From a virus (lineage: Duplodnaviria; Heunggongvirae; Uroviricota; Caudoviricetes): DNA of 27,589 nt. Position 1 is the stretch's first letter. Each line of letters opens with the position of its first letter. The position numbers and the translations under genes were made by a program. The notes below the pieces were generated by a model, which was given only the letters and a program-made list of their open reading frames with translations, had not been told where the DNA came from and did not search any database. The stretch lies in IMG/VR virus record IMGVR_UViG_2563366982_000007; one strand, written 5' to 3'. Shown one piece after another: positions 193-21,340 of this stretch.

Positions 193-723
193 TCAGCCAA
201 CAAATTTAGCAACAAATACAGCAACCGCCGCCGTGAAAATGGTTGTGCATACTGGCACAATAATGCCACTCCAACGCCACTTCGTATTATCATCAACCTT
301 GTCAAACCGCCGATTCATCTCATCCATAATCTTGTCAAAGCGTTTATCCATCGCTTCGGTAAGCTCACCCTTCAGGCTGTTAATGTCTGATTTGAGCTGC
401 TCTTTCAGGTGAGCTGTATCAGATTTAAGCTCACCTTTCAGATTCGCAATATCGCATTTAAGATCACCTTTCAGATGAGCAATGTCTGCTTTGAGCTCAC
501 CTTTCACCTCACCAACATCGGCTTTGGTTGAGAGGTTTGTAGTGCGTTCAGCAAGCGTCGCAAGGTCGTTTCTTGTTAGCGATAAATCACCTTCGAGCCG
601 CTCAATTCGCCTTTCAAGTTTATCTGACATTCCGCCTCCACTATCACCGCCTCCCCCATCGAAAGAATTGCCAATGTCCTCACGAATAAGGGTTATGCCA
701 TGCTCACTTTTAGCATATGCCAC
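193..723 (-). CDS. Coiled-coil repeat protein with glycine-rich N-terminus and C-terminal hydrophobic (tail-anchor-like) segment; function unknown
   Basis: 176-aa ORF. Contains about 5 tandem 11-residue repeats (consensus roughly L-K-G-E-L-K-x-D-I-A-x) and ends in a hydrophobic stretch, WSGIIVPVCTTIFTAAVAVFVAKFVG. Its start abuts the stop of the upstream orf137, suggesting translational coupling. Confidence 0.6.
   Translation of the reverse strand: MAYAKSEHGITLIREDIGNSFDGGGGDSGGGMSDKLERRIERLEGDLSLTRNDLATLAERTTNLSTKADVGEVKGELKADIAHLKGDLKCDIANLKGELKSDTAHLKEQLKSDINSLKGELTEAMDKRFDKIMDEMNRRFDKVDDNTKWRWSGIIVPVCTTIFTAAVAVFVAKFVG
354..518. repeat. About five tandem 33-bp repeats, in-frame coding repeats inside the 193..723 CDS
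   Basis: Repeated unit similar to TTTgAGCTCACCTTTCAGxTGAGCaATaTC at 33-bp period, seen directly. Corresponds to the 11-aa protein repeats. Confidence 0.6.
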
Positions 724-1137
724 TCAGATTCCCTCCCAAACTATATATCCTTTGTCTCTTGCCCAACAAACAACTGTGTGGGCTGTATATGTGGATGTGA
801 AGCCGCAATAAGAACATGACACTTCATACCGAGTATTGTAGATGTTAATGGGCTCGTTCTCCTTGTGTATGGGAGTGACATATTCCCAATCATTTGAATC
901 ATCATAATCATCAAGTTCAGGGTCTGTGCCGTGAACAACCGTATGTGGAATAAACAAATCTGGGCGCCCACACGAGAGACAAGAGGTTCTGGCTCCTCTA
1001 TCTTTGAGGAATTGAATAAATAATTTGGGCGAAATCTGTTGCAGAACCTGCAAATGCCCACGTTCATTATCATTAAGAGACCTGTCTGCATATGGAAAAT
1101 CATCAAATTTAAGAGGCTTCATATAAGGCATCTCCAA
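724..1137 (-). CDS. Hypothetical Cys-rich protein (possible zinc-ribbon), co-transcribed downstream of int
   Basis: 137-aa ORF with two Cys pairs, C-L-S-C-G and C-S-Y-C-G. Its start region overlaps the int stop (alternative starts at 1128 or 1122), and its stop abuts the next ORF. Confidence 0.5.
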   Translation of the reverse strand: MEMPYMKPLKFDDFPYADRSLNDNERGHLQVLQQISPKLFIQFLKDRGARTSCLSCGRPDLFIPHTVVHGTDPELDDYDDSNDWEYVTPIHKENEPINIYNTRYEVSCSYCGFTSTYTAHTVVCWARDKGYIVWEGI

Positions 1138-2101
1138 GGGGATTAAATCTCACCGCATCCTGCAGGTAATCCGGCGCAAGATGGGCATAAATCATCGTTG
1201 TCTGAATCTTTGCGTGCCCCAAAATTTTCTGGAGGGTCAGAATATTGCCGCCGTTCATCATGAAATGACTGGCGAAGGTGTGGCGCAGCGCATGAACAGC
1301 CTGGCCGTCAGGAACATCAGGTGCGACCGTTTTGATGACATCGCGAACCAATGAATAATCCAGCGTCGGAAACACCAGTTTCCCGCCCCGTTTTTTGATC
1401 TTTTCAAACAGGCTTTCAGAAATAGGAACGGTACGGTTTTTGCTGTTCTTCGTTTTTGAAAAAGTGATTCGACAATGAAGAACACGGCGCTGCTCCAGTG
1501 CCGCTACCTCGCCCCATCGCGCCCCGGTCGACAGAAGGATTTCGACAGCCAGCCGTTCATCGGGATTTTCAGCCAGTGCATCCAGCAACTGAACACATTC
1601 AGACTTACTCAGGTATCCCATTTCGCGCTCGTTAACCTTCATTCCTTTAAGGCCTTGAACGGGGTTATCGTTAAGAAAATGGCCGGATGAGATGAGTGCG
1701 GTAAACATCGCGCTTAACGCCCCAATCTCTCGATTTATGGTGCTGGGCTGTATCCCCTGCTCTATCCTGGACACACGTAGCTCGGTGAGCATCGTTGTAT
1801 TAAGTTTATGCACGCACGGGTCATCCATTGCTTCACTCAAGCGCAGCAATTTAAGGCGCGTGTTATGCCCTGACTTCATTAGCTGGCCGTGGTATTTCCA
1901 CCACAAGTCAATAAGCACTGACAGAGGACGGCGATCAATAGAGTTTCCTTTCCACTCATTGTTATGCTGTTGCGCCAGCACCCACCGCTCATATAAAACT
2001 GCATCCGATTTCGTTTTAAATTTTTTGCGAATGCGTTTGCCTTTACGCCCCTCAGGGCGCATGTCAAGAAGATACCCTCCCGGAATTGATTTTATGCTCA
2101 T
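1109..2101 (-). CDS. int: Tyrosine recombinase / phage integrase (P2 Int-like)
   Basis: Translation has the tyrosine-recombinase C-terminal motifs (ARWGE, HALRHTFASHFMMNGG, LQKILGH, MIYAH) and an N-terminus, MSIKSIPGGYLLDMRPEGRKGKRIRKKF, that closely resembles P2 Int as I recall it. Start is trimmed from the track ORF (2251) to the internal Met at 2101 to match P2 Int length and avoid overlapping C. Confidence 0.9.
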   Translation of the reverse strand: MSIKSIPGGYLLDMRPEGRKGKRIRKKFKTKSDAVLYERWVLAQQHNNEWKGNSIDRRPLSVLIDLWWKYHGQLMKSGHNTRLKLLRLSEAMDDPCVHKLNTTMLTELRVSRIEQGIQPSTINREIGALSAMFTALISSGHFLNDNPVQGLKGMKVNEREMGYLSKSECVQLLDALAENPDERLAVEILLSTGARWGEVAALEQRRVLHCRITFSKTKNSKNRTVPISESLFEKIKKRGGKLVFPTLDYSLVRDVIKTVAPDVPDGQAVHALRHTFASHFMMNGGNILTLQKILGHAKIQTTMIYAHLAPDYLQDAVRFNPLGDALYEAS

Positions 2102-2150
2102 TCGTGAAACCCCAGCGTTACAAGACCACCATGCCCCCAGCGTTCCATGA

Positions 2151-2459
2151 TTAGCCGGGCTGTGTACCAGTCTTGCGGGATTTTTGAGAAGACGATGTGT
2201 TTTCTGGCCCATCAGGGGAGAGAGAGGGACTGATCTGCCCAGCAGCCTCATTTGTTTTTCCCGTCATAAGCCAATTCATGTACTTAAAAAAGCGAGGGTG
2301 ATTAACAATCTTGATAAGCACTTCGCCCCCTATGTTTTCAATCCGCCCCGTTTCATAACGACGCAAAGTGCCGATAGGCACATCAATCAGGCCGCAAAAT
2401 TCTTCGCGCGTTAAATCCTCTGATTCACGAATCACTCTAATTTTTTCACCGATAAGCAT
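2151..2459 (-). CDS. C: Immunity repressor, P2 C-like
   Basis: About 102 aa from the internal Met. The core motif EKIRVIRESEDLTREEFCGLIDVPIGTLRRYETGR resembles the P2 C repressor HTH region from memory. Position between int and a divergent rightward early operon matches P2. Confidence 0.7.
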   Translation of the reverse strand: MLIGEKIRVIRESEDLTREEFCGLIDVPIGTLRRYETGRIENIGGEVLIKIVNHPRFFKYMNWLMTGKTNEAAGQISPSLSPDGPENTSSSQKSRKTGTQPG

Positions 2460-2555
2460 TGACAGTGTTCCTATAAGTACACTAAGCTTGCGCACAAGGT
2501 GTACTTATAAGTACACCAAGTCACAAACAACCACAGATAGCGCAGGTTATCACAC
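2460..2555. promoter_or_regulatory. Divergent C / early-operon control region with direct-repeat operator half-sites
   Basis: Two copies of TATAAGTACAC at about 2472-2482 and 2506-2516; the second is embedded in a 20-bp perfect palindrome GGTGTACTTATAAGTACACC (about 2498-2517). TTGACA at about 2459-2464. The 96-bp region lies between divergently transcribed C and the Cox-position gene. Confidence 0.5.
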
Positions 2556-2834
2556 ATGGCAAAAGTCCTGAACACACACGAACAGGCAGACTTTGAGCGT
2601 TTAGCAGCGTTCTATCCCTACCGCGATGAGCATGGGTTACCAGTACTTGAAGAAAGCCTGAAAGATTACGCAAAGCGTACCAACCAAGCTGTTAACACAG
2701 TGAAAAGACAGGCTGACAGAGGTTCAATTCCCATCAACCAAGATGAAAAGAACTCAAGACGCACAGTAAATCTCTTCGCTCTTTTCCTGAAAACAATCAG
2801 GAGCGCAGAAAAATACGTGCAGATGACAAAATAA
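2556..2834 (+). CDS. First gene of early operon, Cox/Apl-position small regulator (assignment by position only)
   Basis: 92-aa basic protein immediately right of the operator region, transcribed divergently from C. I do not see clear sequence similarity to P2 Cox, so the call is positional. Confidence 0.45.
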   Translation: MAKVLNTHEQADFERLAAFYPYRDEHGLPVLEESLKDYAKRTNQAVNTVKRQADRGSIPINQDEKNSRRTVNLFALFLKTIRSAEKYVQMTK

Positions 2835-2848
2835 CGAGGTGTCATTTT

Positions 2849-3187
2849 ATGCTGAAGCAACGCCGTAATTTTCGTACCGGAACAGAACGCCACGCTAACC
2901 GTTTCACTACCAGTGCATCACGCAGCAACATCCGCTACAGCCTGAGTGATACACACGCAACGCCGGATAGCTACCCAGTAAAACAAATCGGCGAGCACAC
3001 CTGGCTGATTGAGAAAGCTGGAATCGTGATCCACAAATGCCCACGCAATCCGTTTACCGGAAACCGCATTTTTGCATTGAGCTGTGGCGACAATCAGTTC
3101 GGGCAGGATTTCACATTATACGAAGCACTTCGCACGGTTGATCGTCTGCTTCGCGGGCAAAGTTTTATTAAACAGACTGATTTATAA
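2849..3187 (+). CDS. Hypothetical early protein
   Basis: 112-aa ORF in the early operon, tightly spaced after the previous gene. Confidence 0.45.
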   Translation: MLKQRRNFRTGTERHANRFTTSASRSNIRYSLSDTHATPDSYPVKQIGEHTWLIEKAGIVIHKCPRNPFTGNRIFALSCGDNQFGQDFTLYEALRTVDRLLRGQSFIKQTDL

Positions 3188-3197
3188 CAGGTGCTTT

Positions 3198-3485
3198 ATG
3201 ACCAAAGACCATGCACAAGGTGTATTTATCCGTTTTATTGATTTTCGCGGTGAACTGTTATTACGTGCATCCGCTATTGACGGAGTGACTCCGGCGGGTA
3301 AAAACGGAGCCGACGAAGCCACTTACGTTTATCTGAACGGCACGCGACTGCTTGTGGAACTTCCGTACCAGACCGTACGAGAAATCATTAGCGAAGCTGA
3401 AAAGGCACGCCAGGTTAATGGCGATGAACCCTATATCGAAATTATTTGTATGGATTCAGAAGCTGAAATACAGAAAGCAGATTAA
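3198..3485 (+). CDS. Hypothetical early protein
   Basis: 95-aa ORF from the internal ATG at 3198 (the track ORF 3084..3485 overlaps the upstream gene). Confidence 0.45.
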   Translation: MTKDHAQGVFIRFIDFRGELLLRASAIDGVTPAGKNGADEATYVYLNGTRLLVELPYQTVREIISEAEKARQVNGDEPYIEIICMDSEAEIQKAD

Positions 3486-3493
3486 AGGGCGTT

Positions 3494-3739
3494 GTGATGG
3501 GCAAAGAATATAAAACTCTCATTAACAAAGCACTTGAGTGTTTTTATTTTCGCTTAAGTGCATCAGGCGCTCATGCTGAACGTGCGGCCCGTGACTCATT
3601 GACCAGAGCAATCCGAAGTCTGTATGACGTGGCTTTTTACGCTGATGATCTGGATGCACTTAACGAACTTTCCGAGCTGATCTGTGCCGCAGAATGCGGG
3701 GAACATATTGAACCGTATAAGCTGGGAAATATCGCATGA
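3494..3739 (+). CDS. Hypothetical early protein
   Basis: 81-aa ORF in operon context. Confidence 0.4.
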   Translation: MMGKEYKTLINKALECFYFRLSASGAHAERAARDSLTRAIRSLYDVAFYADDLDALNELSELICAAECGEHIEPYKLGNIA

Positions 3740-3849
3740 GTATATTTATCTCATGGCTTGTTCTGATTATTTCGGTGGTCTGCGCCATTGGGATTATGCG
3801 AATTATTAATTCAGTAAAAAAGATTGAACGCTTTTTCACTGAAGAATAA
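3736..3849 (+). CDS. Possible small membrane protein (37 aa)
   Basis: ATG overlapping the previous stop (ATGA). Translation MSIFISWLVLIISVVCAIGIMRIINSVKKIERFFTEE has one hydrophobic helix. It is below the ORF-track length cutoff, so it was read by eye. Confidence 0.3.
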   Translation: MSIFISWLVLIISVVCAIGIMRIINSVKKIERFFTEE

Positions 3850-3935
3850 CCGCGCAAATAAGACCCCAGGTTAAATAAGAAAATGTGAAAACAATCCGCA
3901 TTCGCGGAGGTATTCGCACACGCCAAGGAGGCGTA

Positions 3936-4139
3936 ATGGCAATTAAGCATTTTCCTGTCGTTCGTTTCACCTCCAGAGGACGTGAATACGAAGTTGACGA
4001 ACGCCTGATTACCACAATCGACAAACACCGTTCAGAAAAGGATGCACATCACATCTATCTCACTGACGGCACTTACTTCTGCGCCACCAACGTGGTGCAG
4101 GTAAATCTTATCAGACAGGTACAGGAGTCACGCAGATGA
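3936..4139 (+). CDS. Hypothetical early protein
   Basis: 67 aa from the Met preceded by AAGGAGG (the track ORF begins at 3885). Confidence 0.4.
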   Translation: MAIKHFPVVRFTSRGREYEVDERLITTIDKHRSEKDAHHIYLTDGTYFCATNVVQVNLIRQVQESRR

Positions 4140-4894: not shown

Positions 4895-7660
4895 ATGACG
4901 GCAGAGTACATCAGGGACTGGCAACAACCGCGCCACGCAGTGGGGCGTGAAGGAACGGGGATCCCCGCTCCTGAATCCGCGCTTTCCTCCTGGCTGGATG
5001 CCTACCGGGTAGAGAACGAGCGCCGCCAGGAAATGGCTGATGCGGCGTTCTCCGCAACGCCGCTGGGCAACCTGATTAATAAAAGCCTGGACGCACAGGA
5101 AAAACAGGACAAAACCATCACACTGGCAGGAGATGCCAGAAAACAGGCACGCGGCGCGGTGGATGAAGCCATGGCCTCGCTGCGCCTGCTGCCGTCCTAT
5201 CTGCGCGATCCGCTTATTCGCCACCTCTCCTTCCTGCGCAAAAAACAGGAAGCCGATCGTCAGAAAGGCAAAAAGAGCTGGCAGGCTGAACGCTACGCGC
5301 GCGGAAACCTGCGCAAAATATTCGAACGTCTGGAGCGCACCGATCACCGCTGGCTGACACAGGGTTATCGCTCCCTTGCCGGACGCGAACGCCTGGACGA
5401 TTTGCTTTACCTGCCGCAGCTCAACAAACACCAGATACAGACACTGGCCACCATGACGGCGGCGATGTTCAGCAGCACCTTCGAAAAACTCTGCGATGGC
5501 TTTGGCGCGACCGATGGCGAACTGACCATGGATGTAACGCTGAAGGCGTATCAGATGCTGGCCCGCATGGCGTTACACCTGCACGCCATGCCTCCACATT
5601 ATGACGCACTGACAACAGACAAAGACCGGAGGAACGAACCGGACACGGAGCTGCTGCCGGGCGCAATCCTTCGCCTGACCTGTGCAGAATGGTGGAAACG
5701 CAAACTGTGGCTGTTACGTTGCGAGTGGAGAGAAGAACAACTCCGCGCCGCCTGTCTGGTTTCCAGAAAAACATCGCCCTATCTGAGCCAGGACGCGTTA
5801 AGCGAGTTTCGCGCACAGCGCGAGAAAACACGCGATTTCCTGAAAAGTTTCATGCTGGAAAATGAAGACGGGTTCACGATTGATCTCGAGACAGTGTATT
5901 ACGCGGGAGTAAGTAACCCGGTTCACCGTAAGGCAGAAATGATGGCCACCATGAAGGGGCTGGAACTTCTGGCCGAAGCCCGTGGTGACAAAGCGGTGTT
6001 TCTGACTGTCACCTGCCCGTCAAAATACCACGCAACAACGGAGAACGGTCATCCGAACCCCAAATGGAACGGGGCCACCATGCGCGACTCCAGCGATTAC
6101 CTGGTTAACACGTTTTTTGCGGCGGTCCGCAAAAAACTGAACCGCGACGGCCTGCGCTGGTATGGCATCCGCACGGTGGAGCCTCACCATGACGGCACCG
6201 TGCACTGGCATATGATGGTCTTTGCTCATCCGGAAGAAATCGACAGCATCGTGGCCATCACCCGCGATATTGCCATTCAGGAAGATCGTCACGAACTGGG
6301 CGATGATATTACTCCGCGCTTTAAGGCGGAGTATGTCGACGGCTCAAAAGGCACACCAACCAGCTATATCGCGACCTACATCGGAAAAAACCTGGACAGC
6401 CGCGCCGTAGATGGCATCGACCCGAAAACGGGCAAGCCACGCGTTGACCACGAAACCGAAAAATCAATGGCCGAGAGCGTGGAGCGCGCCATTGGCTGGG
6501 CGCGTCTTCATCGGGTCCGCCAGTTCCAGTTCTTTGGCATCCCCTCCCGTCAGGTATGGCGTGAACTCCGCCGCCTTGCCAGCCAGATGGCACGCAACCC
6601 GGAAGGCCCGCAACGGCTGAAGGATGATGCAATGGATGCGGTACTCGCTGCCGCTGATGCCGGGTGTTTTGCCTCCTACATTGAAAAACAGGGCGGCGTA
6701 CTTGTTCCACGTAAAGACTACCTGATTCGCACCGCCTACGACCTCGCAGATGAGCTGAACGATTACGGCGAGCAGAGTGTACAGATTTACGGGATCTGGT
6801 CGCCGCTCATCGGGGAGTCTTCCCGCGTGTGCACGCACCCGGATAACTGGAAGCTGGTAAGACGTAAACCGGAAGCGGAAGACAGCGCCCGCGAAAATGG
6901 TTTTGACCTTCAGGGCGGCCCTGCCGCCCCTTGGACTCGTGGCAATAACTGTCCCCGTGTACAGGAAACGGACAACAACGGGACAGAACAGCCGGAAGAA
7001 CGGCCAGCACCGTGGCCGCAGCTTCCTGACGGCGTTGATGTGGATGAATGGATGCGCTCACTGAAACGGCAAGAACGCCGGGCGCTGATGCGTTCGCTGC
7101 GTGACAAACAGGCAAAAAACAGCAGTGATGAAATGCAGAGCTGGACACAGAGCCGCAAACAGCAGCGGCCTTTGCCTGATAACCACGAATTACTCGCTAA
7201 AGAATGGCGGGAATCTGCTGAATCTCTCGGCCTGCATATCGGTGAACAGCAGATGCAGCACCTGTTACGGGGCGGCAGCCTGTACGTTGACGGCAGCATC
7301 ATTGCACCGCAGGGATTTGAAATTGTACGCAAACCGGATACCCGCCCGGACAGCCGAATCACGCAGCTCTGGCAGCGCCTGAGCCGTAATCACGGCGTAA
7401 GCAGCACGGAGATCCGCCATAACCCGGTCGCCAGCTATCTGGAACAGCTGGGGGCATCAGACCCCGAAGCCGCCGCACGCATGGTATCCACACTTCAGCA
7501 GGACCAGAACACCATGAAAACCCCCGTTACCGTGCTTTCTGACATGCTGCGCGTCATCCGTGACGCAGAGCACGCACAGAGAATCAATGAAACCACTGAA
7601 CGCGCACGTCACAAGGCGGGTCTGTTGCAGGACAAAGGCAATAGCGAGAAGAAAAAATAA
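4895..7660 (+). CDS. A: Rolling-circle replication initiator (P2 gpA-like HUH endonuclease) with long C-terminal extension
   Basis: HUH-type motif TVHWHMMVFAH and paired active-site tyrosines in SYIATYIGKN. Position after the early operon matches P2 gene A. At 921 aa it is longer than P2 A as I recall it (about 760 aa). Confidence 0.85.
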   Translation: MTAEYIRDWQQPRHAVGREGTGIPAPESALSSWLDAYRVENERRQEMADAAFSATPLGNLINKSLDAQEKQDKTITLAGDARKQARGAVDEAMASLRLLPSYLRDPLIRHLSFLRKKQEADRQKGKKSWQAERYARGNLRKIFERLERTDHRWLTQGYRSLAGRERLDDLLYLPQLNKHQIQTLATMTAAMFSSTFEKLCDGFGATDGELTMDVTLKAYQMLARMALHLHAMPPHYDALTTDKDRRNEPDTELLPGAILRLTCAEWWKRKLWLLRCEWREEQLRAACLVSRKTSPYLSQDALSEFRAQREKTRDFLKSFMLENEDGFTIDLETVYYAGVSNPVHRKAEMMATMKGLELLAEARGDKAVFLTVTCPSKYHATTENGHPNPKWNGATMRDSSDYLVNTFFAAVRKKLNRDGLRWYGIRTVEPHHDGTVHWHMMVFAHPEEIDSIVAITRDIAIQEDRHELGDDITPRFKAEYVDGSKGTPTSYIATYIGKNLDSRAVDGIDPKTGKPRVDHETEKSMAESVERAIGWARLHRVRQFQFFGIPSRQVWRELRRLASQMARNPEGPQRLKDDAMDAVLAAADAGCFASYIEKQGGVLVPRKDYLIRTAYDLADELNDYGEQSVQIYGIWSPLIGESSRVCTHPDNWKLVRRKPEAEDSARENGFDLQGGPAAPWTRGNNCPRVQETDNNGTEQPEERPAPWPQLPDGVDVDEWMRSLKRQERRALMRSLRDKQAKNSSDEMQSWTQSRKQQRPLPDNHELLAKEWRESAESLGLHIGEQQMQHLLRGGSLYVDGSIIAPQGFEIVRKPDTRPDSRITQLWQRLSRNHGVSSTEIRHNPVASYLEQLGASDPEAAARMVSTLQQDQNTMKTPVTVLSDMLRVIRDAEHAQRINETTERARHKAGLLQDKGNSEKKK

Positions 7661-7840
7661 CCAAGAAAGAAATCATCAATTGTATGAAGGTAGAGTTTAG
7701 ACATGGTAAGGACGTTCCATGGGGCACACTGTAATTTCATATAGTATTCCTCTTCCCTGTTTGATAAAAAAGTGCAATACTATAAATAGTCCAGTTAAAT
7801 GCTTTTTCAATTCACTTAAAATCAAGAGGTTACAGTTAAG
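7661..7840 (+). promoter_or_regulatory. AT-rich intergenic region upstream of the ATPase-peptidase operon; putative promoter
   Basis: 180 bp, markedly AT-rich. TTGATA at about 7761 and TATAAAT at about 7781 are sigma70-like, but the spacing is not ideal by my count. RBS AAGAGG lies about 10 nt before the 7841 ATG. Confidence 0.3.
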
Positions 7841-8962
7841 ATGGGCGACTTAGGTGGTATTCAGTCAGATTTAGCCCAACTAGTTAGACTGGTAATAACT
7901 GAACAGTATGATGACGTTCGGTTATATGTCGCTCGCTTGGTGCGTAAATATCGGGAAACTATGCCTGCTCTATCCGAGCAGCTTGATCTTTATCTACGAA
8001 ATAAACCGCAAAAGCCTGCACAAAGCCTGCGTAAGGTTACCGCACCAAAACAAGCGCTGCCTCAAACCATGCCTGTGGACGAGGAGTCAAGGCTTACCTT
8101 GCTTAAAGCACCAAATGAAAAGATTGTGAGCAAACCTCTACTGTCCAGTCAGATAGAAGACTCACTGGATCAAATTATTCTTGAGCGGAAGCACATCGAT
8201 CGCCTCAAGACTCTCGGCTTACAACCAACACGCTCTGCCATTTTTGTTGGCCCTCCGGGTGTAGGTAAAACACTTACGGCAAGCTGGTTAGCTCAGAAAT
8301 TAGGGGTTCCTTTTTACGTTCTTGATTTAACGGCAGTAATGAGCAGCTATCTGGGCAAAAGCGGAAATAACCTTCGGGCAGCTCTAGATTTTGCGAAGAA
8401 AGGGCCGTGCGTTCTTCTGTTAGATGAAATTGATTCAATCGCCAAAAAGAGAAGTGATGATTCTGATGTTGGAGAATTAAAAAGACTTGTTACCGTGATA
8501 CTCCAGGAGGTTGACGAATGGCCGTCTTCTAGTTTGCTACTTGCTGCAACTAACTTCGCTGAGTTGATTGATCCAGCACTATGGAGACGTTTTGATTTAG
8601 TGCTCAATTTTGAGAAGCCAGATAGCGAAAGTATTAAAGAAGCAATTAAACGCTTTTCGGGTCCCGACTACGCGATTTTTGCACGTTGGATAGATCTACT
8701 GGCTATTATGTTCAAAAATGAATCTTTTAGTAATATTGAGCGTTCTATCAACAAATTCCGACGTTCGGTCGCTTTAGGTATTTCCTCAGATGAAGAGTTG
8801 ATTGGGTCGTTCATTAAAGATGGTTTATCAGAATTAGACAGGAATGAACGTAAAGAAATTGCAGTTACTCTAAAAAGAAATTCTAAATTATCCCAGCATG
8901 CCATATCAGACTTAACCGGAGTCAGTAGGGATACAATTAGAAAATACAGTCAAAAAATGTAA
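7841..8962 (+). CDS. Classic AAA+ ATPase with C-terminal helix-turn-helix; candidate defense ATPase
   Basis: Walker A GPPGVGKT (about aa 137-144), Walker B LLLDEID (about aa 192-198), sensor-1-like AATN, arginine-finger-like WRRFD. C-terminal LSQHAISDLTGVSRDTIRKYS resembles an HTH. AT-rich codon usage unlike the flanking phage genes. Confidence 0.85.
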   Translation: MGDLGGIQSDLAQLVRLVITEQYDDVRLYVARLVRKYRETMPALSEQLDLYLRNKPQKPAQSLRKVTAPKQALPQTMPVDEESRLTLLKAPNEKIVSKPLLSSQIEDSLDQIILERKHIDRLKTLGLQPTRSAIFVGPPGVGKTLTASWLAQKLGVPFYVLDLTAVMSSYLGKSGNNLRAALDFAKKGPCVLLLDEIDSIAKKRSDDSDVGELKRLVTVILQEVDEWPSSSLLLAATNFAELIDPALWRRFDLVLNFEKPDSESIKEAIKRFSGPDYAIFARWIDLLAIMFKNESFSNIERSINKFRRSVALGISSDEELIGSFIKDGLSELDRNERKEIAVTLKRNSKLSQHAISDLTGVSRDTIRKYSQKM

Positions 8963-8985
8963 TACAGCATAGATAAGGAGTATGT

Positions 8986-11211
8986 ATGGCGAAAACTAAT
9001 TTTCTGATTGGACGCGGCGAATTATTAACCAGCGATATTCCTGGTCCTAAAAGAGTGCCCGGAAAAGCTGAGGTTTATTCTCTTTACGAATCGAAACAAC
9101 GTTTATTGCCGCAAATTGCATCTACTATAGAAAATTTTGATGATTTACCCAGTCAGGCATGTCCTTATGATTATGCTGTGGCTAAGTTGACGTTGAATCC
9201 AAGCTATATTGCACGCTCTTTTTTTCCTGCAAAAATGCTTAAGTCTACCGGGTTAACGTCTATTGGCAGCAGGACGGTAAAAATTACGCCTCAAAGCTGG
9301 AAGCGAAAAGTTACTGTGTCAGAAGTAACTACGACACAAATGTTTGTTGCTGGTAAAAGAGAATCCTTCAAAGAGTTACCTCATTGGGTGTCAGAACTCA
9401 AAGAGTTTTCTGACGAAGCGATTGATTTTGCACGCATAGAACGGTTCGATGCCTATTTACCCGAAGAGCGTATTATTACCATTGGTGAGCAGGATTCTTC
9501 GTATTTTGAGGTTGGTGTTCATTTACTGCCAGATAATGAACAAGACTTGGTTCAGCAACAATTTGTTCAGTTTGCATCAAATTTGAACATCAAAGTACAT
9601 ACTTCATTAGCTTTTACCGCTGGTACATTATGGTTCGTGCCAATCCAGGCCGATAGAATTACTATTAGTAAGCTTGCGAAATTTACATTTGTACGAGTAA
9701 TAAGACCGGTTCCAAGATTGCGTGGGATTAGACCAATACAAAGGAACTACGGTCCTTTAGCTCAGTGTAAATTACCTGCTGAGGGCCCCGTATCTTCAGA
9801 AATAAAAGTTGCGATTCTTGATGGTGGTTTACCATCAGAGCACGCTATATCGCCATGGTTAAAATCCTATAGAGTTTTGGACGATCATGCAGAGGATGAT
9901 CCAGACGGTTTAGAGCATGGTTTAGCTGTGTCTTCAGCCTTTTTATTTGGACCAATAAGTAATAAATCGGAAGCGAAAAGACCATACTCTTATATTGATA
10001 ACTTAAGAGTTTTGGACAACAAGACCTGCCAAGAAGATCCGCTGGAACTATATCGAACTTTGGGCTTTATTGAAGAGGTATTGTTGTCTCGCCAGTATCA
10101 GTTTATCAATCTAAGTTTAGGTCCAGACCTACCAATTGAAGATACGGAAGTTCATGCATGGACTTCCGTTATTGATGATTTGTTAAGTGATGGTGAAACA
10201 TTAATGACTGTTGCTGTTGGCAACAATGGAGAAATGGATCGCAAGTCTGGTAATGCAAGAATTCAAGTACCAGCCGATTGCGTTAATGCTCTTGCTGTTG
10301 GTGCTTGTGATACAGTTAATGATACGGAATGGAAACGAGCACCATATAGCGCCATTGGGCCAGGCAGAAGTCCTGGCGTGATGAAACCGGATTTAGTTGC
10401 GTTTGGTGGTGACACAGACGAGTACTTTCATGTTTTAGGTAAAGGTAAGAAGCCTGTAATCATACCCCAGCTAGGAACAAGCTTTGCCTCTCCTTACGCC
10501 TTACGAGCAGCTGTTGGTGTTCGGGCAATTTTAGGGAACGATTTGAGCCTACTAGCAATCAAAGCTTTGTTAATTCATGCGTCAAAACAGCTTGATCATC
10601 CTTGTACAGAAGTTGGCTGGGGAAAACTGCCTGAAGACTTGAACGACATTATAGTCAGCCCTGATGGTGTTGCCCGTATCGTCTACCAAGGTGAATTGAA
10701 ACCAGGAAAATACTTACGCGCTTCTCTTCCAATACCTGAAGGTGGCTTGAAAGGTAGAATAAACTTAGCGGCAACTTTCTGTTATGCAACAACCACTGAT
10801 CCACAAGACCCAGCTTCCTATACAAAAGCTGGTTTGGAAGTGACATTCCGGCCAAATGATTCAAAAATCAAAGACGGAAAACAAAATGCTGAAACCAAGG
10901 GATTCTTTGAACTGGCCAAATATTCAACTGAAAGTGAGCGACGTTCTGACATGGGCAAATGGGAGACCGTCTTACATAATTCGAAGAACATGCTAGGTTC
11001 AACTCTAAAAAATCCTGTATTTGACATTCATTATAACGCTCGTGAGGCCGGTGCAAGCATAGCCAGCCATAAGGCAGAAAAAATCAAGTATGCTCTTATA
11101 ATTACCATTAAGGCATCAAAGCACCAAGACCTGTATAACGAAATTTTACGTACTTATAATCAGGTGCTCGTGCCAATTCAACCGCAAACATCAATTCCTA
11201 TTCGTTCGTAA
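8986..11211 (+). CDS. S8 family (subtilisin-like) serine peptidase, cytoplasmic, with N- and C-terminal accessory domains; candidate defense effector or sensor
   Basis: Catalytic triad in canonical S8 order and context: Asp in VAILDGG (about aa 279), His in EHGLAVS (about aa 311), oxyanion Asn in VGNNG (about aa 413), Ser in GTSFASPY (about aa 499). No N-terminal signal peptide. About 270 aa precede and about 230 aa follow the protease core. Starts 23 bp after the ATPase stop with RBS AAGGAG. Confidence 0.85.
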   Translation: MAKTNFLIGRGELLTSDIPGPKRVPGKAEVYSLYESKQRLLPQIASTIENFDDLPSQACPYDYAVAKLTLNPSYIARSFFPAKMLKSTGLTSIGSRTVKITPQSWKRKVTVSEVTTTQMFVAGKRESFKELPHWVSELKEFSDEAIDFARIERFDAYLPEERIITIGEQDSSYFEVGVHLLPDNEQDLVQQQFVQFASNLNIKVHTSLAFTAGTLWFVPIQADRITISKLAKFTFVRVIRPVPRLRGIRPIQRNYGPLAQCKLPAEGPVSSEIKVAILDGGLPSEHAISPWLKSYRVLDDHAEDDPDGLEHGLAVSSAFLFGPISNKSEAKRPYSYIDNLRVLDNKTCQEDPLELYRTLGFIEEVLLSRQYQFINLSLGPDLPIEDTEVHAWTSVIDDLLSDGETLMTVAVGNNGEMDRKSGNARIQVPADCVNALAVGACDTVNDTEWKRAPYSAIGPGRSPGVMKPDLVAFGGDTDEYFHVLGKGKKPVIIPQLGTSFASPYALRAAVGVRAILGNDLSLLAIKALLIHASKQLDHPCTEVGWGKLPEDLNDIIVSPDGVARIVYQGELKPGKYLRASLPIPEGGLKGRINLAATFCYATTTDPQDPASYTKAGLEVTFRPNDSKIKDGKQNAETKGFFELAKYSTESERRSDMGKWETVLHNSKNMLGSTLKNPVFDIHYNAREAGASIASHKAEKIKYALIITIKASKHQDLYNEILRTYNQVLVPIQPQTSIPIRS

Positions 11212-11224
11212 TCCTTCAAGACAT

Positions 11225-11256
11225 AATGCCCCTCAATTTGAGGGGCATTTCTTTGC
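11225..11256 (+). terminator. Rho-independent terminator after the peptidase gene
   Basis: Perfect 10-bp stem AATGCCCCTC / GAGGGGCATT with loop AATTT, followed by a T-rich run; begins 14 nt after the stop codon. Confidence 0.6.
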
Positions 11257-11608
11257 ACAAAAGTGCACAAATTTGCACAATTTTTTTGAACGACTTTTTG
11301 CCCTTCCGGCCCGCATGGCGGCTGGATCCGTCAAGGATCCGTGCGTGCACAAAAAACGCGTTTTTCCTGCGCGCAGGTGACGGGGGAACAGCCCGCGTTT
11401 CAGGGGGTAAACAGCATTCCCTGAACGATGTCGCAGAGACACAACAGAATGGCCATATTTCTCACGCTGAGCATGAAAAAGGCGTGAGGGCTTTTGATTT
11501 GATGGGGTGAAAGGTAAGGCCGTCAAAATCGCACTGAGGCAGCGAGAACATACAGTCAACGCGGTGGAATTGCGTAAGTGAAGTGGTCAACAAAAACTGG
11601 CCACCGAG

Positions 11609-12756
<1,148 letters not shown>

Positions 12757-13031
12757 TATGGCACCTGTGTTGTTCTGAGGTGAGCATATCACCTCTGTTC
12801 AGGTGGCCAAATTCAGTAAACCACTTCAAAGAGTCTGACCGTCGATGGTGGCGATAAACTGGAAGGCGTCGTGAAATTATCTGATTGATACAGGAGCTGG
12901 AGAGCCGGGGCATAAATTTTTTATGCCCCGGCGAAGCAGCAGACAAGCGAAGCGCGTCAGCGATACGGCACCTTGCCGACCATACTTCATAAGTGCAAAA
13001 TACGAGCAAAGAAATCAATGGAGGCTGTCTT

Positions 13032-13556
13032 ATGGTCATTAATTACAAGCAGTTAAGAGAAAAACGGGAGCAGGTAAAGGAGAGCTTTCGCCGCAATGAA
13101 GATCTGACCCCGCTTGTACGCCTTGCCCAGGGCATTGTTGATGCTTATGAAATCTCGCTGGAGCTGCCATCACAGACCTGGACAGATAGCGACGGTAATC
13201 GCCAGCATTACGTTTCATGCGGACTGGAAGCAGCCGAAGGATTTCGCAGAATGCCTTTATCCCAGATCCCTGCCGCTACCCCCAAAGCACGGGGCAGCAA
13301 TGATGAGCGAAAACTGACTTTTAGTATTGAAACGGTGGTTGACGACACACCTGGCGAAGTCGCGTTCGTGCACACGCCTGTTTCGATCGCAATGTATAAC
13401 GATGAAATACAGGTTCGCGTTAATAATAATATCGTGCCACTTAAAGAAGGTAATTCACCCTACACCACCGTTTGTGAAGCCATTCAATATTACGTTCTCT
13501 CTGAAATTGATAATCTCAAGCCTGACGGCACCCAGAAAATGGTTCAACTCTGGTAA
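13032..13556 (+). CDS. Hypothetical protein (about 174 aa), orphan gene between the IS and portal gene Q, convergent with Q
   Basis: ORF with RBS GGAGG before the ATG at 13032 (the track ORF starts at 12993). No recognisable motifs. Ends at a shared bidirectional terminator. Confidence 0.5.
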   Translation: MVINYKQLREKREQVKESFRRNEDLTPLVRLAQGIVDAYEISLELPSQTWTDSDGNRQHYVSCGLEAAEGFRRMPLSQIPAATPKARGSNDERKLTFSIETVVDDTPGEVAFVHTPVSIAMYNDEIQVRVNNNIVPLKEGNSPYTTVCEAIQYYVLSEIDNLKPDGTQKMVQLW

Positions 13557-13588
13557 AAAGGACAGCCCCATCACGGGGCTGTTTTTTC
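13555..13588. terminator. Bidirectional intrinsic terminator between the orphan gene and Q
   Basis: Stem ACAGCCCC / GGGGCTGT with loop ATCAC, flanked by an A-run on one side and a T6 run on the other. Overlaps the Q stop codon. Confidence 0.6.
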
Positions 13589-14617
13589 ATCAAGAAGAGC
13601 ATAAGAGTTAAAACGGATCACCTCTTCGCCAAGCCAGTCATTGATGTGCTTCATAGCCTCCATGACGGGCATCAGCTCGTTAATTGCGTAAACCCGCGCT
13701 GCCTTCTCCACATCGCCAAACGCACTTTTTTCGCCCGGCATCGCCCCCATCAGTTGCGGCGGAACGCGGTGCGCAGCCAGCACATCATCACGGGATGCCG
13801 CCTTAACATTCATGAATTCATCTTTTGCGGTGATCTGCTGGAACGGCAAAATTTGCACCCCCTCTTTGCCCCCGTTGGGCGCATGAATGAGCACGTTTTT
13901 AAACGCACCACCACCACGTGCCCCCTGTAGCGTTTCTTTCAGGGAGTCCATGCTTTCGCGGTTTACCTGCGCTGCACCGATGTAGATAATGCACCCGGCG
14001 TGGGATCCGTTGTCGTAGTACAGTTTTCTGAACATGTCCGCCGAATGAGAAAGGCTGGCCGAGAGTAATGCGCCAAGATATTCCGGCATGCCGTAGATTT
14101 CCTGGTTAATATCCGGATTCATCAGGTGGCACACTTTGCCAGGACGAAACTGAAACGCGTCCTTGCCATCCTGCACATACCACCATGATTCAAGATCGCT
14201 TCCGCGTCGCATGTATTTCGCCAGGGCGTGCCGTAATTTAAGCGGTTCGCCGAGCATATTGCTTCGAAGCTCAAGGAATGCGTTACCGAACACAAACCAG
14301 TCCAGCGCCAGCGCCGAGAAATCCTGCCGGGAAAGCAGCGGGTGCGGGATGTAGCAACCGAGTAATACATTGCGCTTAAAGTAAAGCGCAGACTGATGCC
14401 AGGACGTTTGCCGGGCTGCTCTTGCCAGACCGTACCAGTCCACCGGGGTTTCATACCACCGCCCGTTATCAGCACAGTACATATTGTCCAGCAGGTCATG
14501 CCCGGTCAGGCGATAAGGACCATCAAATGTGAATGCACTGAGCGATGATTCTTTCCTGAGCGCATCAGCGAGATCAATGCGTGAACTCATGCGCACTTTT
14601 TTATTTTTTCTGCTCAT
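13571..14617 (-). CDS. Q: Portal protein (P2 gpQ-like)
   Basis: 348 aa (P2 Q is about 344 aa). Lies immediately downstream of, and overlapping by 1 nt, the large terminase gene on the minus strand, as in P2. Confidence 0.85.
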   Translation of the reverse strand: MSRKNKKVRMSSRIDLADALRKESSLSAFTFDGPYRLTGHDLLDNMYCADNGRWYETPVDWYGLARAARQTSWHQSALYFKRNVLLGCYIPHPLLSRQDFSALALDWFVFGNAFLELRSNMLGEPLKLRHALAKYMRRGSDLESWWYVQDGKDAFQFRPGKVCHLMNPDINQEIYGMPEYLGALLSASLSHSADMFRKLYYDNGSHAGCIIYIGAAQVNRESMDSLKETLQGARGGGAFKNVLIHAPNGGKEGVQILPFQQITAKDEFMNVKAASRDDVLAAHRVPPQLMGAMPGEKSAFGDVEKAARVYAINELMPVMEAMKHINDWLGEEVIRFNSYALLDEKTAP

Positions 14618-16368
14618 CAGAACTCCATAACCGTGAAACGCTCGTTTTCTCCTTCGCCGCCAATTGGTTCGTTAATGACAGCAAGCATGGTTGCCCACGC
14701 AAGGTCGCCGTGGCTGATCCCCCTCGCGCGGTCCGTTTCGTAAGTGATAAAGCCGCCCGGTGTTTTCACCTTACGCACGGCGTTAAAGGCTGCGACCAGC
14801 TCGCGTTCGGCGCGATCGTATTCCCACCGCCCGGCACGCATTATTTGCAGCATTTTCAGTACCAGCGACCGTTTTGATGACAGCGTGAAGGTGTACGGAA
14901 TAGCAGCAGGGAAAAACCGTTTCACTATCTGATAAACAGCCTCCCCGTTCCCGCCTGTCACATCAATGCCGATGTGTTCCACGTTGTAGCGACACGTGAA
15001 CTCTTCAATGACTCTGGCCTGTTCTTCAAACTCCAGCCCCTGAACGCGTCGCGTCTCCACCGTTCGAAAACGGCCGCCAGGAACAGCCGGAGGAACCACC
15101 ACGGACACAGCGCCGCTGTCGCCGTTTCCACTGCTGCCGTTTGCGTCATACCCAATCCATACCGGACGATTCCCCATCGGGCGGGGAGCAAAAGGTTTCC
15201 AGTCTTTCCAGTCGTCGTATCCGTCAACACCGCAGCCAATCAGGATATTCAGGTTAAATGCCGATTCCCCTTCGCGGACAAACTCACACATATAGAGATT
15301 GAGGAACTCGTCTTCGGTGTTTTCATCACGAATTTCGTCGATATCGGTGTGTTTCCAGCCGTGATTAACCACATCTTCCAGCGTGACAATTTGCCGCCAC
15401 GTCCGGTCAGGGCAGATAAGCCCGTTATGCAGCGTTTTCCAGTCCACAGAAAAACGCTGGCGTTTATGCGAGGCCTTTTTCTCGTTCCAGCGGTCGCCGT
15501 TCCAGTAGGCGTATGCCTCGTGCGTTTCGGTGGATGGCGTGGAGAAGTAGGTGCGCCGCAATCCGCTGAGGGTTGCCATAGCGCCAGCCACCTTGCGCAG
15601 TTCAGCAAAGCGACTGACCCAGAAAAATTCATCAAAATAAAAATTGCCCGTATAGGACTGCGCCGACGCAGCAGAAGTGCCGAGAAAATGCAGCTCTGCG
15701 CCGTTGGAGAGGATGATTTTATCGCCCCCTTTCAGCTCCACATCAACTTCAGCCGCAGCCTTCTGAATAATGCTTTTAAACTGGAACGCCTGACGACGCG
15801 ACGCAGACAAAAAAATCTGGTTACGCTGGTAAGGTTGCGCCACATCGTCACGCAGCGCCATCAGCAGTGCTTCCTGTGCAAAATACCAGGTCGCGCCAAT
15901 CTGTCGGGATTTCAGGATCATCCTGTTACGTATCCCGGCTTCCCTGCAAAGGGTCAGGGAGTCAAACCAGCCCCGCTGATGCCACTCCAGCCTGCTGATG
16001 ATTTTTTCCCGCAGTGCGGCAATCTGTTCCGGCGTGAAATGATTTTTGAGTTTTTTCGCCCGGCCTTTCTTTCCTGTGGCCGTCGCATCCGGCTGGCCAT
16101 CATGCATTTTTTTAAGCTGCCGGGTCAGCAGGTCTATTTCCTTAAAGTCACCGCCTGTTTTATTCTGTTTTTCAGTAAGCTGGATGAGGCGCGCATCGAT
16201 GGACTGCGTGACACGCTGCACGGGTGGCGTTTCATCCCACTGGTCGCGTTTTTTCCACGCATAAATCGTGTTCGGGTTTATTCCCATCAGACGTGATATT
16301 TCTGCGGGCGGATAACCCTGCCAGTAAAGTTGCCGCGCACGCTGGCGCACAAAAGCGTCCTGAATCAT
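14617..16368 (-). CDS. P: Terminase large (ATPase) subunit (P2 gpP-like)
   Basis: 583 aa, with an ATPase region and a nuclease region. Position and orientation, divergent from O-N-M-L, are exactly as in P2. Confidence 0.88.
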   Translation of the reverse strand: MIQDAFVRQRARQLYWQGYPPAEISRLMGINPNTIYAWKKRDQWDETPPVQRVTQSIDARLIQLTEKQNKTGGDFKEIDLLTRQLKKMHDGQPDATATGKKGRAKKLKNHFTPEQIAALREKIISRLEWHQRGWFDSLTLCREAGIRNRMILKSRQIGATWYFAQEALLMALRDDVAQPYQRNQIFLSASRRQAFQFKSIIQKAAAEVDVELKGGDKIILSNGAELHFLGTSAASAQSYTGNFYFDEFFWVSRFAELRKVAGAMATLSGLRRTYFSTPSTETHEAYAYWNGDRWNEKKASHKRQRFSVDWKTLHNGLICPDRTWRQIVTLEDVVNHGWKHTDIDEIRDENTEDEFLNLYMCEFVREGESAFNLNILIGCGVDGYDDWKDWKPFAPRPMGNRPVWIGYDANGSSGNGDSGAVSVVVPPAVPGGRFRTVETRRVQGLEFEEQARVIEEFTCRYNVEHIGIDVTGGNGEAVYQIVKRFFPAAIPYTFTLSSKRSLVLKMLQIMRAGRWEYDRAERELVAAFNAVRKVKTPGGFITYETDRARGISHGDLAWATMLAVINEPIGGEGENERFTVMEF

Positions 16369-21198: not shown

Positions 21199-21340
21199 CC
21201 CACCCACATGGGGAAACCTCGGAATATGGGGCGACCGCCTTCTGGATGCACTGGAAACCTGTAACGCGGATAAACGGGCCATTGCTGAACTGGATAAGAG
21301 AATAGCCGAACTGACACACCAGACGGGAGTAACACAATGA
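21059..21340 (+). CDS. o-spanin (Rz1-like lipoprotein), overlapping the 3' end of Rz in another frame
   Basis: Lipoprotein signal with lipobox LLTGC and a proline-rich mature region (PVTPPPFPDPPTW). Overlaps Rz, as in P2 lysB/lysC. Confidence 0.6.
   Translation: MNAPTLCLTLVLLTGCAGTQNAPGPAPSVRLIPQTLTMPVTPPPFPDPPTWGNLGIWGDRLLDALETCNADKRAIAELDKRIAELTHQTGVTQ

Follow-up and report, generated by a model that had tools for sequence, protein, structure and literature searches.

The two-gene operon at positions 7841 to 11211, plus strand, of the window, i.e., of the whole 27,589-nucleotide stretch of DNA that was analysed (IMG/VR virus record IMGVR_UViG_2563366982_000007), very probably is an IetAS cassette (DefenseFinder ‘Gao_Iet’), carried as accessory cargo of the gpA-gpQ hotspot of a P2-like E. 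coli prophage and working as proposed below, that is, with an AAA+ ATPase, IetA, restraining a cytoplasmic subtilase, IetS. The pair is already known, with its family, its P2-hotspot location, and its exact proteins all present in the literature and in RefSeq. The genes ietA and ietS are adjacent and co-oriented, with a single promoter region upstream and a single terminator downstream, and the features of this unit along with its phage anchors are as follows.

4895 to 7660, plus strand: left anchor, P2-type replication endonuclease gpA, 921 aa (Pfam Phage_GPA, 3e-131; RefSeq ‘replication endonuclease’)
7661 to 7840, plus strand: cassette promoter/leader, AT-rich (33% GC), the 180 nt upstream of ietA
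7841 to 8962, plus strand: ietA, 373 aa, classic-clade AAA+ ATPase, putative antitoxin/regulator (PADLOC IetA, 1e-77; Pfam AAA, 2.6e-30)
8249 to 8272, plus strand: IetA Walker A, GPPGVGKT, aa 137-144 (invariant, 31 homologues)
8414 to 8434, plus strand: IetA Walker B, LLLDEID, aa 192-198 (D195 and E196 invariant, 31 homologues)
8585 to 8590, plus strand: IetA second-region-of-homology arginines R249/R250, the arginine fingers (W248, R249, R250, F251 and D252 invariant)
8840 to 8956, plus strand: IetA C-terminal helix-turn-helix (HTH), aa 334-372 (many sub-threshold Pfam HTH matches, E about 1e-3)
8963 to 8985, plus strand: ietA-ietS intergenic spacer, 23 nt, carrying the ietS RBS, AAGGAG (8975-8980)
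8986 to 11211, plus strand: ietS, 741 aa, cytoplasmic S8 subtilase, putative toxin/effector (PADLOC IetS, 1e-51; Pfam Peptidase_S8, 2.5e-19)
9820 to 9822, plus strand: IetS catalytic Asp279 (invariant, 38 homologues)
9916 to 9918, plus strand: IetS catalytic His311 (invariant, 38 homologues)
10222 to 10227, plus strand: IetS oxyanion-hole Asn413/Asn414 (both invariant, 38 homologues)
10480 to 10482, plus strand: IetS catalytic Ser499, inside GTSFASP (invariant, 38 homologues)
11225 to 11256, plus strand: intrinsic terminator, an 11-bp GC-rich hairpin (11225-11249) plus U-rich tail (folding energy versus shuffles)
13571 to 14617, minus strand: right anchor, portal protein gpQ (Pfam Phage_portal; RefSeq annotation)

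Family assignment is based on PADLOC profile models, Pfam, and NCBIfam as applied to both proteins, together with gene adjacency. The first-pass annotation had suggested an IetAS-type architecture, and the PADLOC profiles indeed match both proteins nearly end to end. That is, PDLC02196 (IetA) is matched at E = 1e-77 over residues 9-372, versus positions 5-370 of the model's 374, and PDLC02197 (IetS) at E = 1e-51 over residues 36-726, versus positions 38-733 of 749, with three further PADLOC IetA models and six further IetS models matched as well. The Pfam searches which that annotation had proposed return the expected domains (AAA and Peptidase_S8, at the E-values listed above). Its suggestion that extra domains on both proteins could indicate a distinct or undescribed variant did not hold up, however. 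As the family models cover those regions too, the ‘extra domains’ belong to the usual make-up of the family, and from residue 1 onward both proteins run collinear with those of the other ietAS of the P2 hotspot; Pfam, as applied to the isolated accessory regions, gave nothing beyond the sub-threshold HTH of the IetA C-terminus.

The only NCBIfam defence families to be matched are ‘anti-phage ATPase IteA’ (NF042959, IteA_antiphage) and ‘S8 family anti-phage peptidase IteS’ (NF042956, IteS_antiphage), and in neither case is the equivalog cut-off reached, with IetA at 223.3 versus 510 bits and IetS at 135.3 versus 900 bits. The pair thus is homologous to, but lies outside of, the curated orthologous group, i.e., it is a divergent subfamily relative to the equivalogs of the Gao et al. 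2020 ietAS (Gao_Iet), with which it shares full-length model matches, intact catalytic sets, and two genes. RefSeq therefore provides only the names ‘AAA family ATPase’ and ‘S8 family peptidase’. The IetA of the group-7 ietAS of Rousset et al. likewise falls under the NCBIfam cut-off, at 253 bits.

The operon had been placed within the P2 tin/old hotspot, between replication gene A and the packaging genes, and this is where it is found. To its left is gpA and to its right, on the minus strand, are the genes for portal and terminase (13571-16368), with P2-type terminase, scaffold, capsid, and tail genes lying beyond the portal gene (Pfam, RefSeq). The gpA-gpQ slot is a published P2 defence hotspot, the cargo of which has repeatedly proved to be protective (PMC9122126). 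Indeed, Rousset et al. 2022 list the exact pair, WP_000502620 plus WP_001556981, in their P2-hotspot table, where a sister AAA plus Peptidase_S8 group is labelled “ietAS (Gao et al, 2020)” (PMC9122126). That sister, group 7, for which Table S5 provides 400 loci (PMC9122126), uses the same slot in E. coli P2-like prophages and has the same domain order, the collinearity including both the N-terminal tail of IetS and the C-terminal HTH of IetA, but its IetA shares only 43% identity with the one described here, and its IetS 33%. Going by these sequences, two IetAS subtypes make use of the gpA-gpQ slot. The slot itself is variable, with the gpA 3' end present in 1,368 of 5,426 E. coli genomes and the gpA-ietA junction in only 40. 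P2's own tin and old share this genomic position, and a similar ecological role, i.e., prophage-encoded exclusion of other phages (a role which for the present pair is putative), although their proteins and mechanisms are unrelated to those of IetAS. An IS3-family element is inserted 367 bp downstream of the operon.

The first-pass description of a tight operon, one with a 23-bp spacer, separate RBSs, and a terminator at 11225, stands in each of its parts. Both open reading frames are present, the ietA stop codon (TAA, 8960-8962) and the ietS ATG (8986) leave a gap of 23 nt, and ietA is preceded by its own RBS (AAGAGG, 7824-7829). The terminator hairpin, followed by UUUCUUUG, has a folding energy of -19.4 kcal/mol (z = -4.83), with 0 of 200 shuffles folding as well; it is absent from the output of a simple consensus scanner. 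A three-gene, ietHAS-type variant was considered and rejected, there being no extra gene inside this terminator-bounded unit. Also as had been described, both the operon (41.6% GC) and the 180 nt upstream of it (33%) are AT-richer than their surroundings, i.e., than gpA (57.3%) and the structural genes (56.2%). Within the leader are found a -35/-10-like pair (7761-7790), which is a candidate promoter, and an inverted repeat, TATAGTATT-N-AATACTATA, with arms at 7740-7754 and 7770-7784. Approximately 100 nt upstream of ietA, inverted repeat included, are conserved with a Serratia P2-like prophage as well as with a Photorhabdus satellite-like island, and the promoter thus travels with the cassette between different elements.

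IetA is predicted to consist of a 3-helix bundle (aa 3-53), a disordered linker (55-95), an AAA module (103-331), and the HTH (334-372), with a mean pLDDT of 76 for the AF2 model. Its designation as a classic AAA+ ATPase with intact Walker A, Walker B, and arginine-finger motifs is upheld by the invariance of those motifs among 31 homologues, as is seen also for the sensor-1 residue, N238. Fold and profile matches (Foldseek, PDB profiles) are to p97, Rpt subunits, FtsH, and FIGL-1, and IetA, as so modelled, resembles substrate-translocating AAA+ unfoldases. Residues M167, S168, S169, L171, and G172 of the pore-loop region are invariant across the 31 homologues. The pore-loop ‘aromatic’ position, which is Tyr here, is Leu in 17 of those 31, however, and a threading mechanism is therefore not assured. 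The C-terminal HTH is modelled as helices 334-347, 352-359, and 363-372 at a pLDDT of 86-88; S362-K368 is invariant in the same alignment, the sub-threshold Pfam matches include HTH_11 and HTH_23, and the domain is given as HTH_50 in the Rousset hotspot table (PMC9122126).

IetS has an N-terminal tail (aa 1-30) that is conserved yet disordered, followed by an alpha/beta N-domain (31-245), the S8 catalytic domain (271-546), and a C-terminal beta-sandwich C-domain (about 551-725). The AF2 model is poor (mean pLDDT of 54) and a PDB sequence search returned no solved relative. The description of a 741-aa S8 peptidase with an intact Asp-His-Asn-Ser set is borne out by the invariance of the entire set among the 38 homologues. 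No signal-peptide-like or transmembrane stretch is seen by Kyte-Doolittle hydropathy, the check used here rather than SignalP, with the top 19-aa window at 1.54 and the top 8-aa window near the N-terminus at 0.89. This agrees with the first-pass view of IetS as lacking a signal peptide and being intracellular, and on the same hydropathy grounds a reading as a secreted protease was rejected.

Of 5,426 complete E. coli genomes, 43 have an identical operon; the S8 gene of one genome (H40) is interrupted by an IS5 element. A search of a phage collection found the operon in no sequenced phage, and within the plasmid collection only a single record has it, that of a megaplasmid from Enterobacter hormaechei (85% identity). 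Across Proteobacteria, homologues at 65-77% identity occur on genomic islands and ICEs as well as on prophages and satellites. The order of ietA and then ietS is retained at every locus that was examined, including in the same slot of the Serratia P2-like prophage, in the Photorhabdus satellite-like island, in a Burkholderia ICE, and in Stenotrophomonas and Nitrosomonas islands. Rather than being mainly in the core genome, a distribution which the first-pass annotation had named as counting against a defence role, the homologues examined thus are on mobile elements or variable islands, and nothing points toward the non-defence pathway it had also named, e.g., secreted protease maturation. As judged by dN/dS versus an 85%-identical allele from a second E. 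coli P2-like prophage (0.048 for ietA and 0.044 for ietS), strong purifying selection acts on the two genes alike, at about 0.045. A reading as a decaying remnant was rejected on the basis of that ratio.

What the pair might do is suggested by its better characterized relatives. When first described, the family was seen as a stability system for a plasmid and for a genomic island, i.e., as pTiC58 IetAS and SGI1 SgiAT, respectively (PMC5006074, PMC13069673), and in both the role of toxin falls to the protease and that of antitoxin to the ATPase (PMC5006074). For SGI1 S025/S026 the protease is toxic alone and is neutralised by the ATPase (PMC5006074). These systems (Yamamoto et al. 2009 for pTiC58, as cited in PMC5006074 and PMC13069673; S026-S025 for SGI1) have the same operon order, AAA+ ATPase and then S8 subtilase, as well as a short spacer in the case of SgiAT (20 bp versus 23 bp here), and all are borne by mobile elements, although by different ones, i.e., plasmid and genomic island versus prophage, with this comparison being one of published descriptions. 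Among Salmonella homologues, genomic context allowed no clear assignment of SgiAT. The ietAS of B. cereus m1293, similarly of two genes, effects an abortive infection that is triggered by SPbeta yosG (10.1101/2022.08.27.505566). With ietHAS (Liu-DS4) the IetA and IetS core is shared and defence requires protease activity (PMC13069673, in which attempts to construct an ietA mutant are given as unsuccessful), but there is also an additional, essential SNF2-type helicase, IetH, whereas here there are two genes, with gpA directly upstream and the terminator directly downstream. The ietAS of ECOR52, on its own, displayed limited anti-phage activity against a panel of 29 phages (Wu et al.). The primers used for its cloning have no match in the window, and it therefore appears to be a different allele.

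In the proposed mechanism, and going by the results here, IetS is a cytoplasmic subtilase, the proteolytic activity of which would harm the cell, and IetA is a classic-clade AAA+ ATPase (the clade of p97, proteasomal Rpt subunits, and FtsH) with a C-terminal HTH. By analogy with the characterized relatives, in the uninfected lysogen IetS would be held inactive by IetA in an ATP-dependent manner, with IetA probably also autoregulating its own promoter via the conserved inverted repeat, which would then be an operator. A ‘trigger’ protein supplied by another, infecting phage would break this restraint, and the freed IetS would degrade cellular proteins, phage proteins, or both, such that growth stops prior to the end of the invader's cycle, i.e., as an abortive infection. 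The same toxin-antitoxin logic might serve as well to stabilise the prophage, by killing cells which lose it. As the molecular mechanism of IetAS was stated as unknown as late as 2026 (PMC13069673), the steps of restraint, trigger, and target are extrapolations.

It is possible to imagine the cassette instead as mainly an addiction module, one effecting post-segregational killing for the sake of the P2-like prophage and providing little or no anti-phage benefit. The history of the family as a stability system, the weak showing of ECOR52 ietAS, and the presence of homologues on elements that gain from retention (ICEs, satellites, prophages) are in keeping with this, but the slot is a documented home to protective cargo (PMC9122126), family members display both phage defence and abortive infection (PMC13069673, 10.1101/2022.08.27.505566), and the roles of addiction and defence can in any case coexist, leaving a predominantly addictive role fairly unlikely. 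Still less probable is that IetA and IetS together form a true ATP-dependent protease, as with FtsH, Lon, or the 26S proteasome, which defends directly and without killing by being fed unfolded phage proteins. That IetA's closest structural relatives are protease-coupled unfoldases (Rpt subunits, FtsH, AFG3L2), that its pore-loop residues are so well retained, and that the two genes are strictly linked would all fit. S8 subtilases, however, are not known to be chambered. In addition, the relatives' protease is toxic by itself and is neutralised by the ATPase, the reverse of how an obligate co-enzyme would behave; abortive infection is seen with an ietAS homologue (10.1101/2022.08.27.505566), and there is the ietA mutant that could not be made (PMC13069673).

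Scarcely credible is that the pair might be a decaying or non-functional remnant, or else an ordinary pair for the maturation of a secreted protease, one that plays no part in conflicts among genetic elements. The nearby IS3-family element and the IS5 interruption in H40 could be taken as hints of decay, but both open reading frames of the window are intact, the dN/dS is low, and the catalytic residues are all invariant. As to maturation, IetS lacks a signal peptide or transmembrane segment and every context examined is that of a mobile element or variable island.

As a discovery, an IetAS cassette in this location matters little, since standard defence-finder profiles detect the pair and since family, slot, and proteins are all published. 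The cassette is compact, intact, and strongly conserved, it brings its own promoter along with a candidate operator, and its ATPase bears an HTH, such that this E. coli allele represents instead a convenient model for how an AAA+ ATPase might restrain a cytoplasmic subtilase, and for what releases that subtilase. A more speculative suggestion, one which we consider to be improbable though worth stating, is that this widespread proteobacterial subtype forms an IetAS clade of distinct function, in which IetA grips the strongly conserved but disordered IetS tail (aa 1-30), thereby gating a prodomain-bearing subtilase zymogen. Were that so, then this would be an AAA+-controlled protease effector that is mechanistically undescribed, and its trigger and phage range might differ as well. 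The subtype, it may be observed, is 65-77% conserved across classes yet is 33-43% identical to the other ietAS of the E. coli P2 hotspot.

The window, a P2-like E. coli prophage, matches a prophage of strain M1/5 at 99.97-100% identity across shared parts. Its ietAS cassette, i.e., genes for an AAA+ ATPase (ietA) and an S8 peptidase (ietS) plus upstream control region, is arranged with its flanks as follows:

4895-7660, + strand: Phage_GPA replication endonuclease gene (gpA), one flank
7740-7784: inverted repeat TATAGTATTCCTCTT / AAGTGCAATACTATA (arms 7740-7754 and 7770-7784), upstream of ietA and overlapping a promoter-like site
7841-8962, + strand: ietA, 373 aa
8986-11211, + strand: ietS, 741 aa, co-oriented with ietA
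11225-11256: terminator, whose 11-bp GC-rich hairpin is followed by a U-rich tail (-19.4 kcal/mol, z = -4.8)
13571-16368, strand opposite to the operon: portal and large terminase genes, the other flank

The first-pass annotation had described a two-gene operon, AT-richer than its surroundings and located where P2 carries tin and old, and this description holds. That is, the two ORFs are separated by a 23-nt spacer, each is preceded by its own Shine-Dalgarno sequence, and the terminator follows. GC content is 41.6% for the operon and 33% for the 180 nt preceding it, versus 57.3% for gpA and 56.2% for the structural genes. With Phage_GPA to one side and portal and terminase to the other, the operon occupies a published P2 defense hotspot, the site of tin and old in P2 itself (PMC9122126). 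The gpA product is 921 aa long, with its Phage_GPA domain spanning residues 179-503 only and its C-terminal approximately 400 residues lacking an assignment.

Assignment of the pair to a family rests on profile searches. A Pfam search returns AAA and Peptidase_S8. The IetAS architecture suggested in the first-pass annotation is borne out by PADLOC profiles matching end to end, i.e., IetA with E = 1e-77 (residues 9-372 on model positions 5-370 of 374) and IetS with E = 1e-51 (residues 36-726 on model positions 38-733 of 749). The NCBIfam anti-phage models 'IteA' and 'IteS' are, respectively, the best IetA match and the sole IetS match, with scores falling far below the equivalog cut-offs (223 vs 510 bits and 135 vs 900 bits). 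Given these end-to-end matches along with scores so far under the cut-offs, the pair, as judged from sequence, is a genuine IetAS of a subfamily other than NCBIfam's curated exemplar. The locus would be expected to work like IetAS, belonging to that family by all sequence criteria tried except the strict NCBIfam equivalog thresholds, the missing of which points to a divergent subtype. Since both terminal regions of the proteins fall within the family models, the 'extra domains', suggested earlier as possibly marking a distinct or undescribed variant, are instead normal IetAS architecture.

The finding is correct but already known, since family, hotspot, and exact protein pair all have been published. 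Together with its immediate flanks, the operon occurs at >=99% identity in 43 of 5,426 complete E. coli genomes, in every case on the chromosome. The M1/5 proteins, WP_000502620 and WP_001556981, are found in the supplementary table of Rousset et al. 2022 as the P2-hotspot locus 'AAA/HTH_50 + Peptidase_S8', with one entry grouping the exact pair with a neighboring hypothetical protein, WP_000236495 (PMC9122126). The same table labels a 400-locus 'Peptidase_S8 | AAA' group as 'ietAS (Gao et al, 2020)' (PMC9122126). To that group's representative the window's proteins are collinear from residue 1 but only 43% (IetA) and 33% (IetS) identical, and therefore at least two IetAS subtypes share one slot in E. 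coli P2-like phages. Surveys using PADLOC regularly list ietAS among E. coli systems, e.g., in porcine ETEC, and several ETEC genomes as well as UMNK88 have the present allele. In the data set of Wu et al., ietAS is counted in 1,979 genomes (a figure read from supplementary count columns); the primers for the ECOR52 system that they tested do not match the window. No direct experimental test of the window's subtype was found in the literature.

Also within the hotspot, 367 bp 3' of ietS, is a 1,250-bp IS3-family element (ISEc52-like; 11579-12828). Its HTH_Tnp_1 and rve ORFs lie on the minus strand, its ends are inverted repeats (TGAAGTGG/CCACTTCA), and 3 bp of target (AAG) are duplicated. The M1/5 prophage lacks window 530-3964 (integrase, repressor, early genes) at its left end, and it is there instead that M1/5 carries an identical copy of the element. 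WP_000236495 itself (12993-13556, + strand) abuts the portal gene, has no Pfam or PADLOC match, and recurs beside several unrelated cargo systems in the Rousset hotspot table (PMC9122126). It is more likely a conserved slot boundary gene than an IetAS component.

Approximately 100 nt 5' of ietA is conserved among E. coli, Serratia, and Photorhabdus copies despite differing host elements, and thus the cassette brings its own control region. The inverted repeat at 7740-7784, which is kept in the Serratia copy and partly in that of Photorhabdus, could serve as an operator bound by the C-terminal HTH of IetA. Just 3' of the ietS terminator, three copies of (T/G)TGCACAA at exact 10-bp spacing (11253-11280) include the palindrome GTGCACAAATTTGCAC, with a fourth approximately 70 bp beyond (11345-11352); these may be a protein-binding site. 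As 11248-11299 is conserved in P2-like phage PhiR44_2, that stretch is phage backbone rather than cassette.

Full-length homologues of IetS (738-741 aa, 65-77% identical) are widespread in Gamma- and Betaproteobacteria, as are full-length homologues of IetA. In every locus examined the AAA gene lies directly 5' of the S8 gene, in mobile or variable surroundings:

Serratia: P2-like prophage, same gpA-portal slot
E. coli: a second, divergent P2-like prophage
Photorhabdus: satellite-like island with D5-type primase, AlpA, and integrase
Burkholderia: adjoining TrbI and DUF2274 conjugation genes and transposases
Stenotrophomonas: island 3' of guaA, also with a trypsin-like protein (Schlafen-type helicase and MazG-like protein in 2 of 3 contigs examined)
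Nitrosomonas: region flanked by an IS element

Slot content is variable, with the neighboring gpA 3' end present in 1,368 genomes versus the gpA-ietA junction in only 40.

The ATPase motifs and protease catalytic set, earlier described as intact, are present and indeed invariant, i.e., Walker A (137-144), Walker B (192-198), N238, and R249/R250 in 31 IetA homologues, and D279, H311, N413/N414, and S499 in 38 IetS homologues. In the IetA model (mean pLDDT 76), a classic AAA module is preceded by a three-helix bundle at the N-terminus and a disordered linker (55-95), and is followed by a C-terminal HTH of three helices, the last of which is invariant. Conservation extends to the pore-loop-1 region (M167 S168 S169 x L171 G172), though the customary aromatic position is Tyr in the window and Leu in 17 of the 31 homologues. 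An intracellular protease is upheld by hydropathy, which finds no signal-peptide-like or membrane-spanning stretch in IetS. No solved structure matches IetS by sequence and its model is poor (mean pLDDT 54). Weak fold matches, suggestive only, are to a prodomain-catalytic-beta-domain layout as in pro-Tk-SP, with tandem ferredoxin-like units making up the N-domain and a beta-sandwich at the C-terminus. IetS residues 1-30 (8986-9075), predicted by AlphaFold to be disordered, rank with its most conserved segments (77% mean identity, N5 F6 L7 I8 G9 R10 G11 E12 invariant), with the motif recognizable in the other P2-hotspot subtype. This tail could be an element engaged by IetA.

Characterized relatives supply the basis for a mechanism. 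With pTiC58 IetAS and SGI1 SgiAT, toxicity of the protease shows within 30 minutes and is neutralized by the ATPase, and the pair stabilizes its element (PMC5006074; PMC13069673), behavior from which a role in addiction only might be read. B. cereus ietAS nevertheless effects abortive infection, becoming toxic upon expression of SPbeta protein YosG (10.1101/2022.08.27.505566), and defense by the ietHAS variant needs the protease active site, with an ietA mutant that could not be built (PMC13069673). From these behaviors, IetA would keep IetS inactive in an ATP-dependent manner, probably also repressing the cassette promoter via its HTH; a protein of an incoming phage would then break this restraint, with proteolysis by freed IetS resulting in cell arrest. 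Authors in 2026 still call the anti-phage mechanism unknown (PMC13069673), and so restraint, trigger, and target alike are proposals.

A true unfoldase-protease machine, degrading phage proteins without killing the host, is a different reading. The nearest sequence and structure relatives of IetA are p97/Cdc48, proteasomal Rpt subunits, FtsH/AFG3L2, and fidgetin-like ATPases, all of which are substrate-translocating unfoldases; the toxic, ATPase-restrained proteases of the characterized relatives are instead what the restraint mechanism is built upon. That ietAS is a non-functional relic is argued against both by motif conservation and by dN/dS relative to an 85%-identical E. coli allele (ietA 0.048, ietS 0.044), values indicating that both genes are maintained by selection.

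Elsewhere in the window, a 176-aa coiled-coil ORF (193-723, - strand; DUF1640 in RefSeq), with the chromosomal btuC side on one flank and the integrase on the other, has weak PADLOC matches to ZorA, LmuB, and LeoBC (E about 1e-4 to 2e-5), which look like coiled-coil composition rather than homology. Between the lysis and tail genes, where P2 has no gene, is a 626-aa ORF (21337-23217, + strand) with DUF1737, a SASA carbohydrate (sialate-type) O-acetylesterase domain, and DUF6645. This ORF, frameshifted in M1/5 and matched by no PADLOC profile, is possibly a second cargo item.
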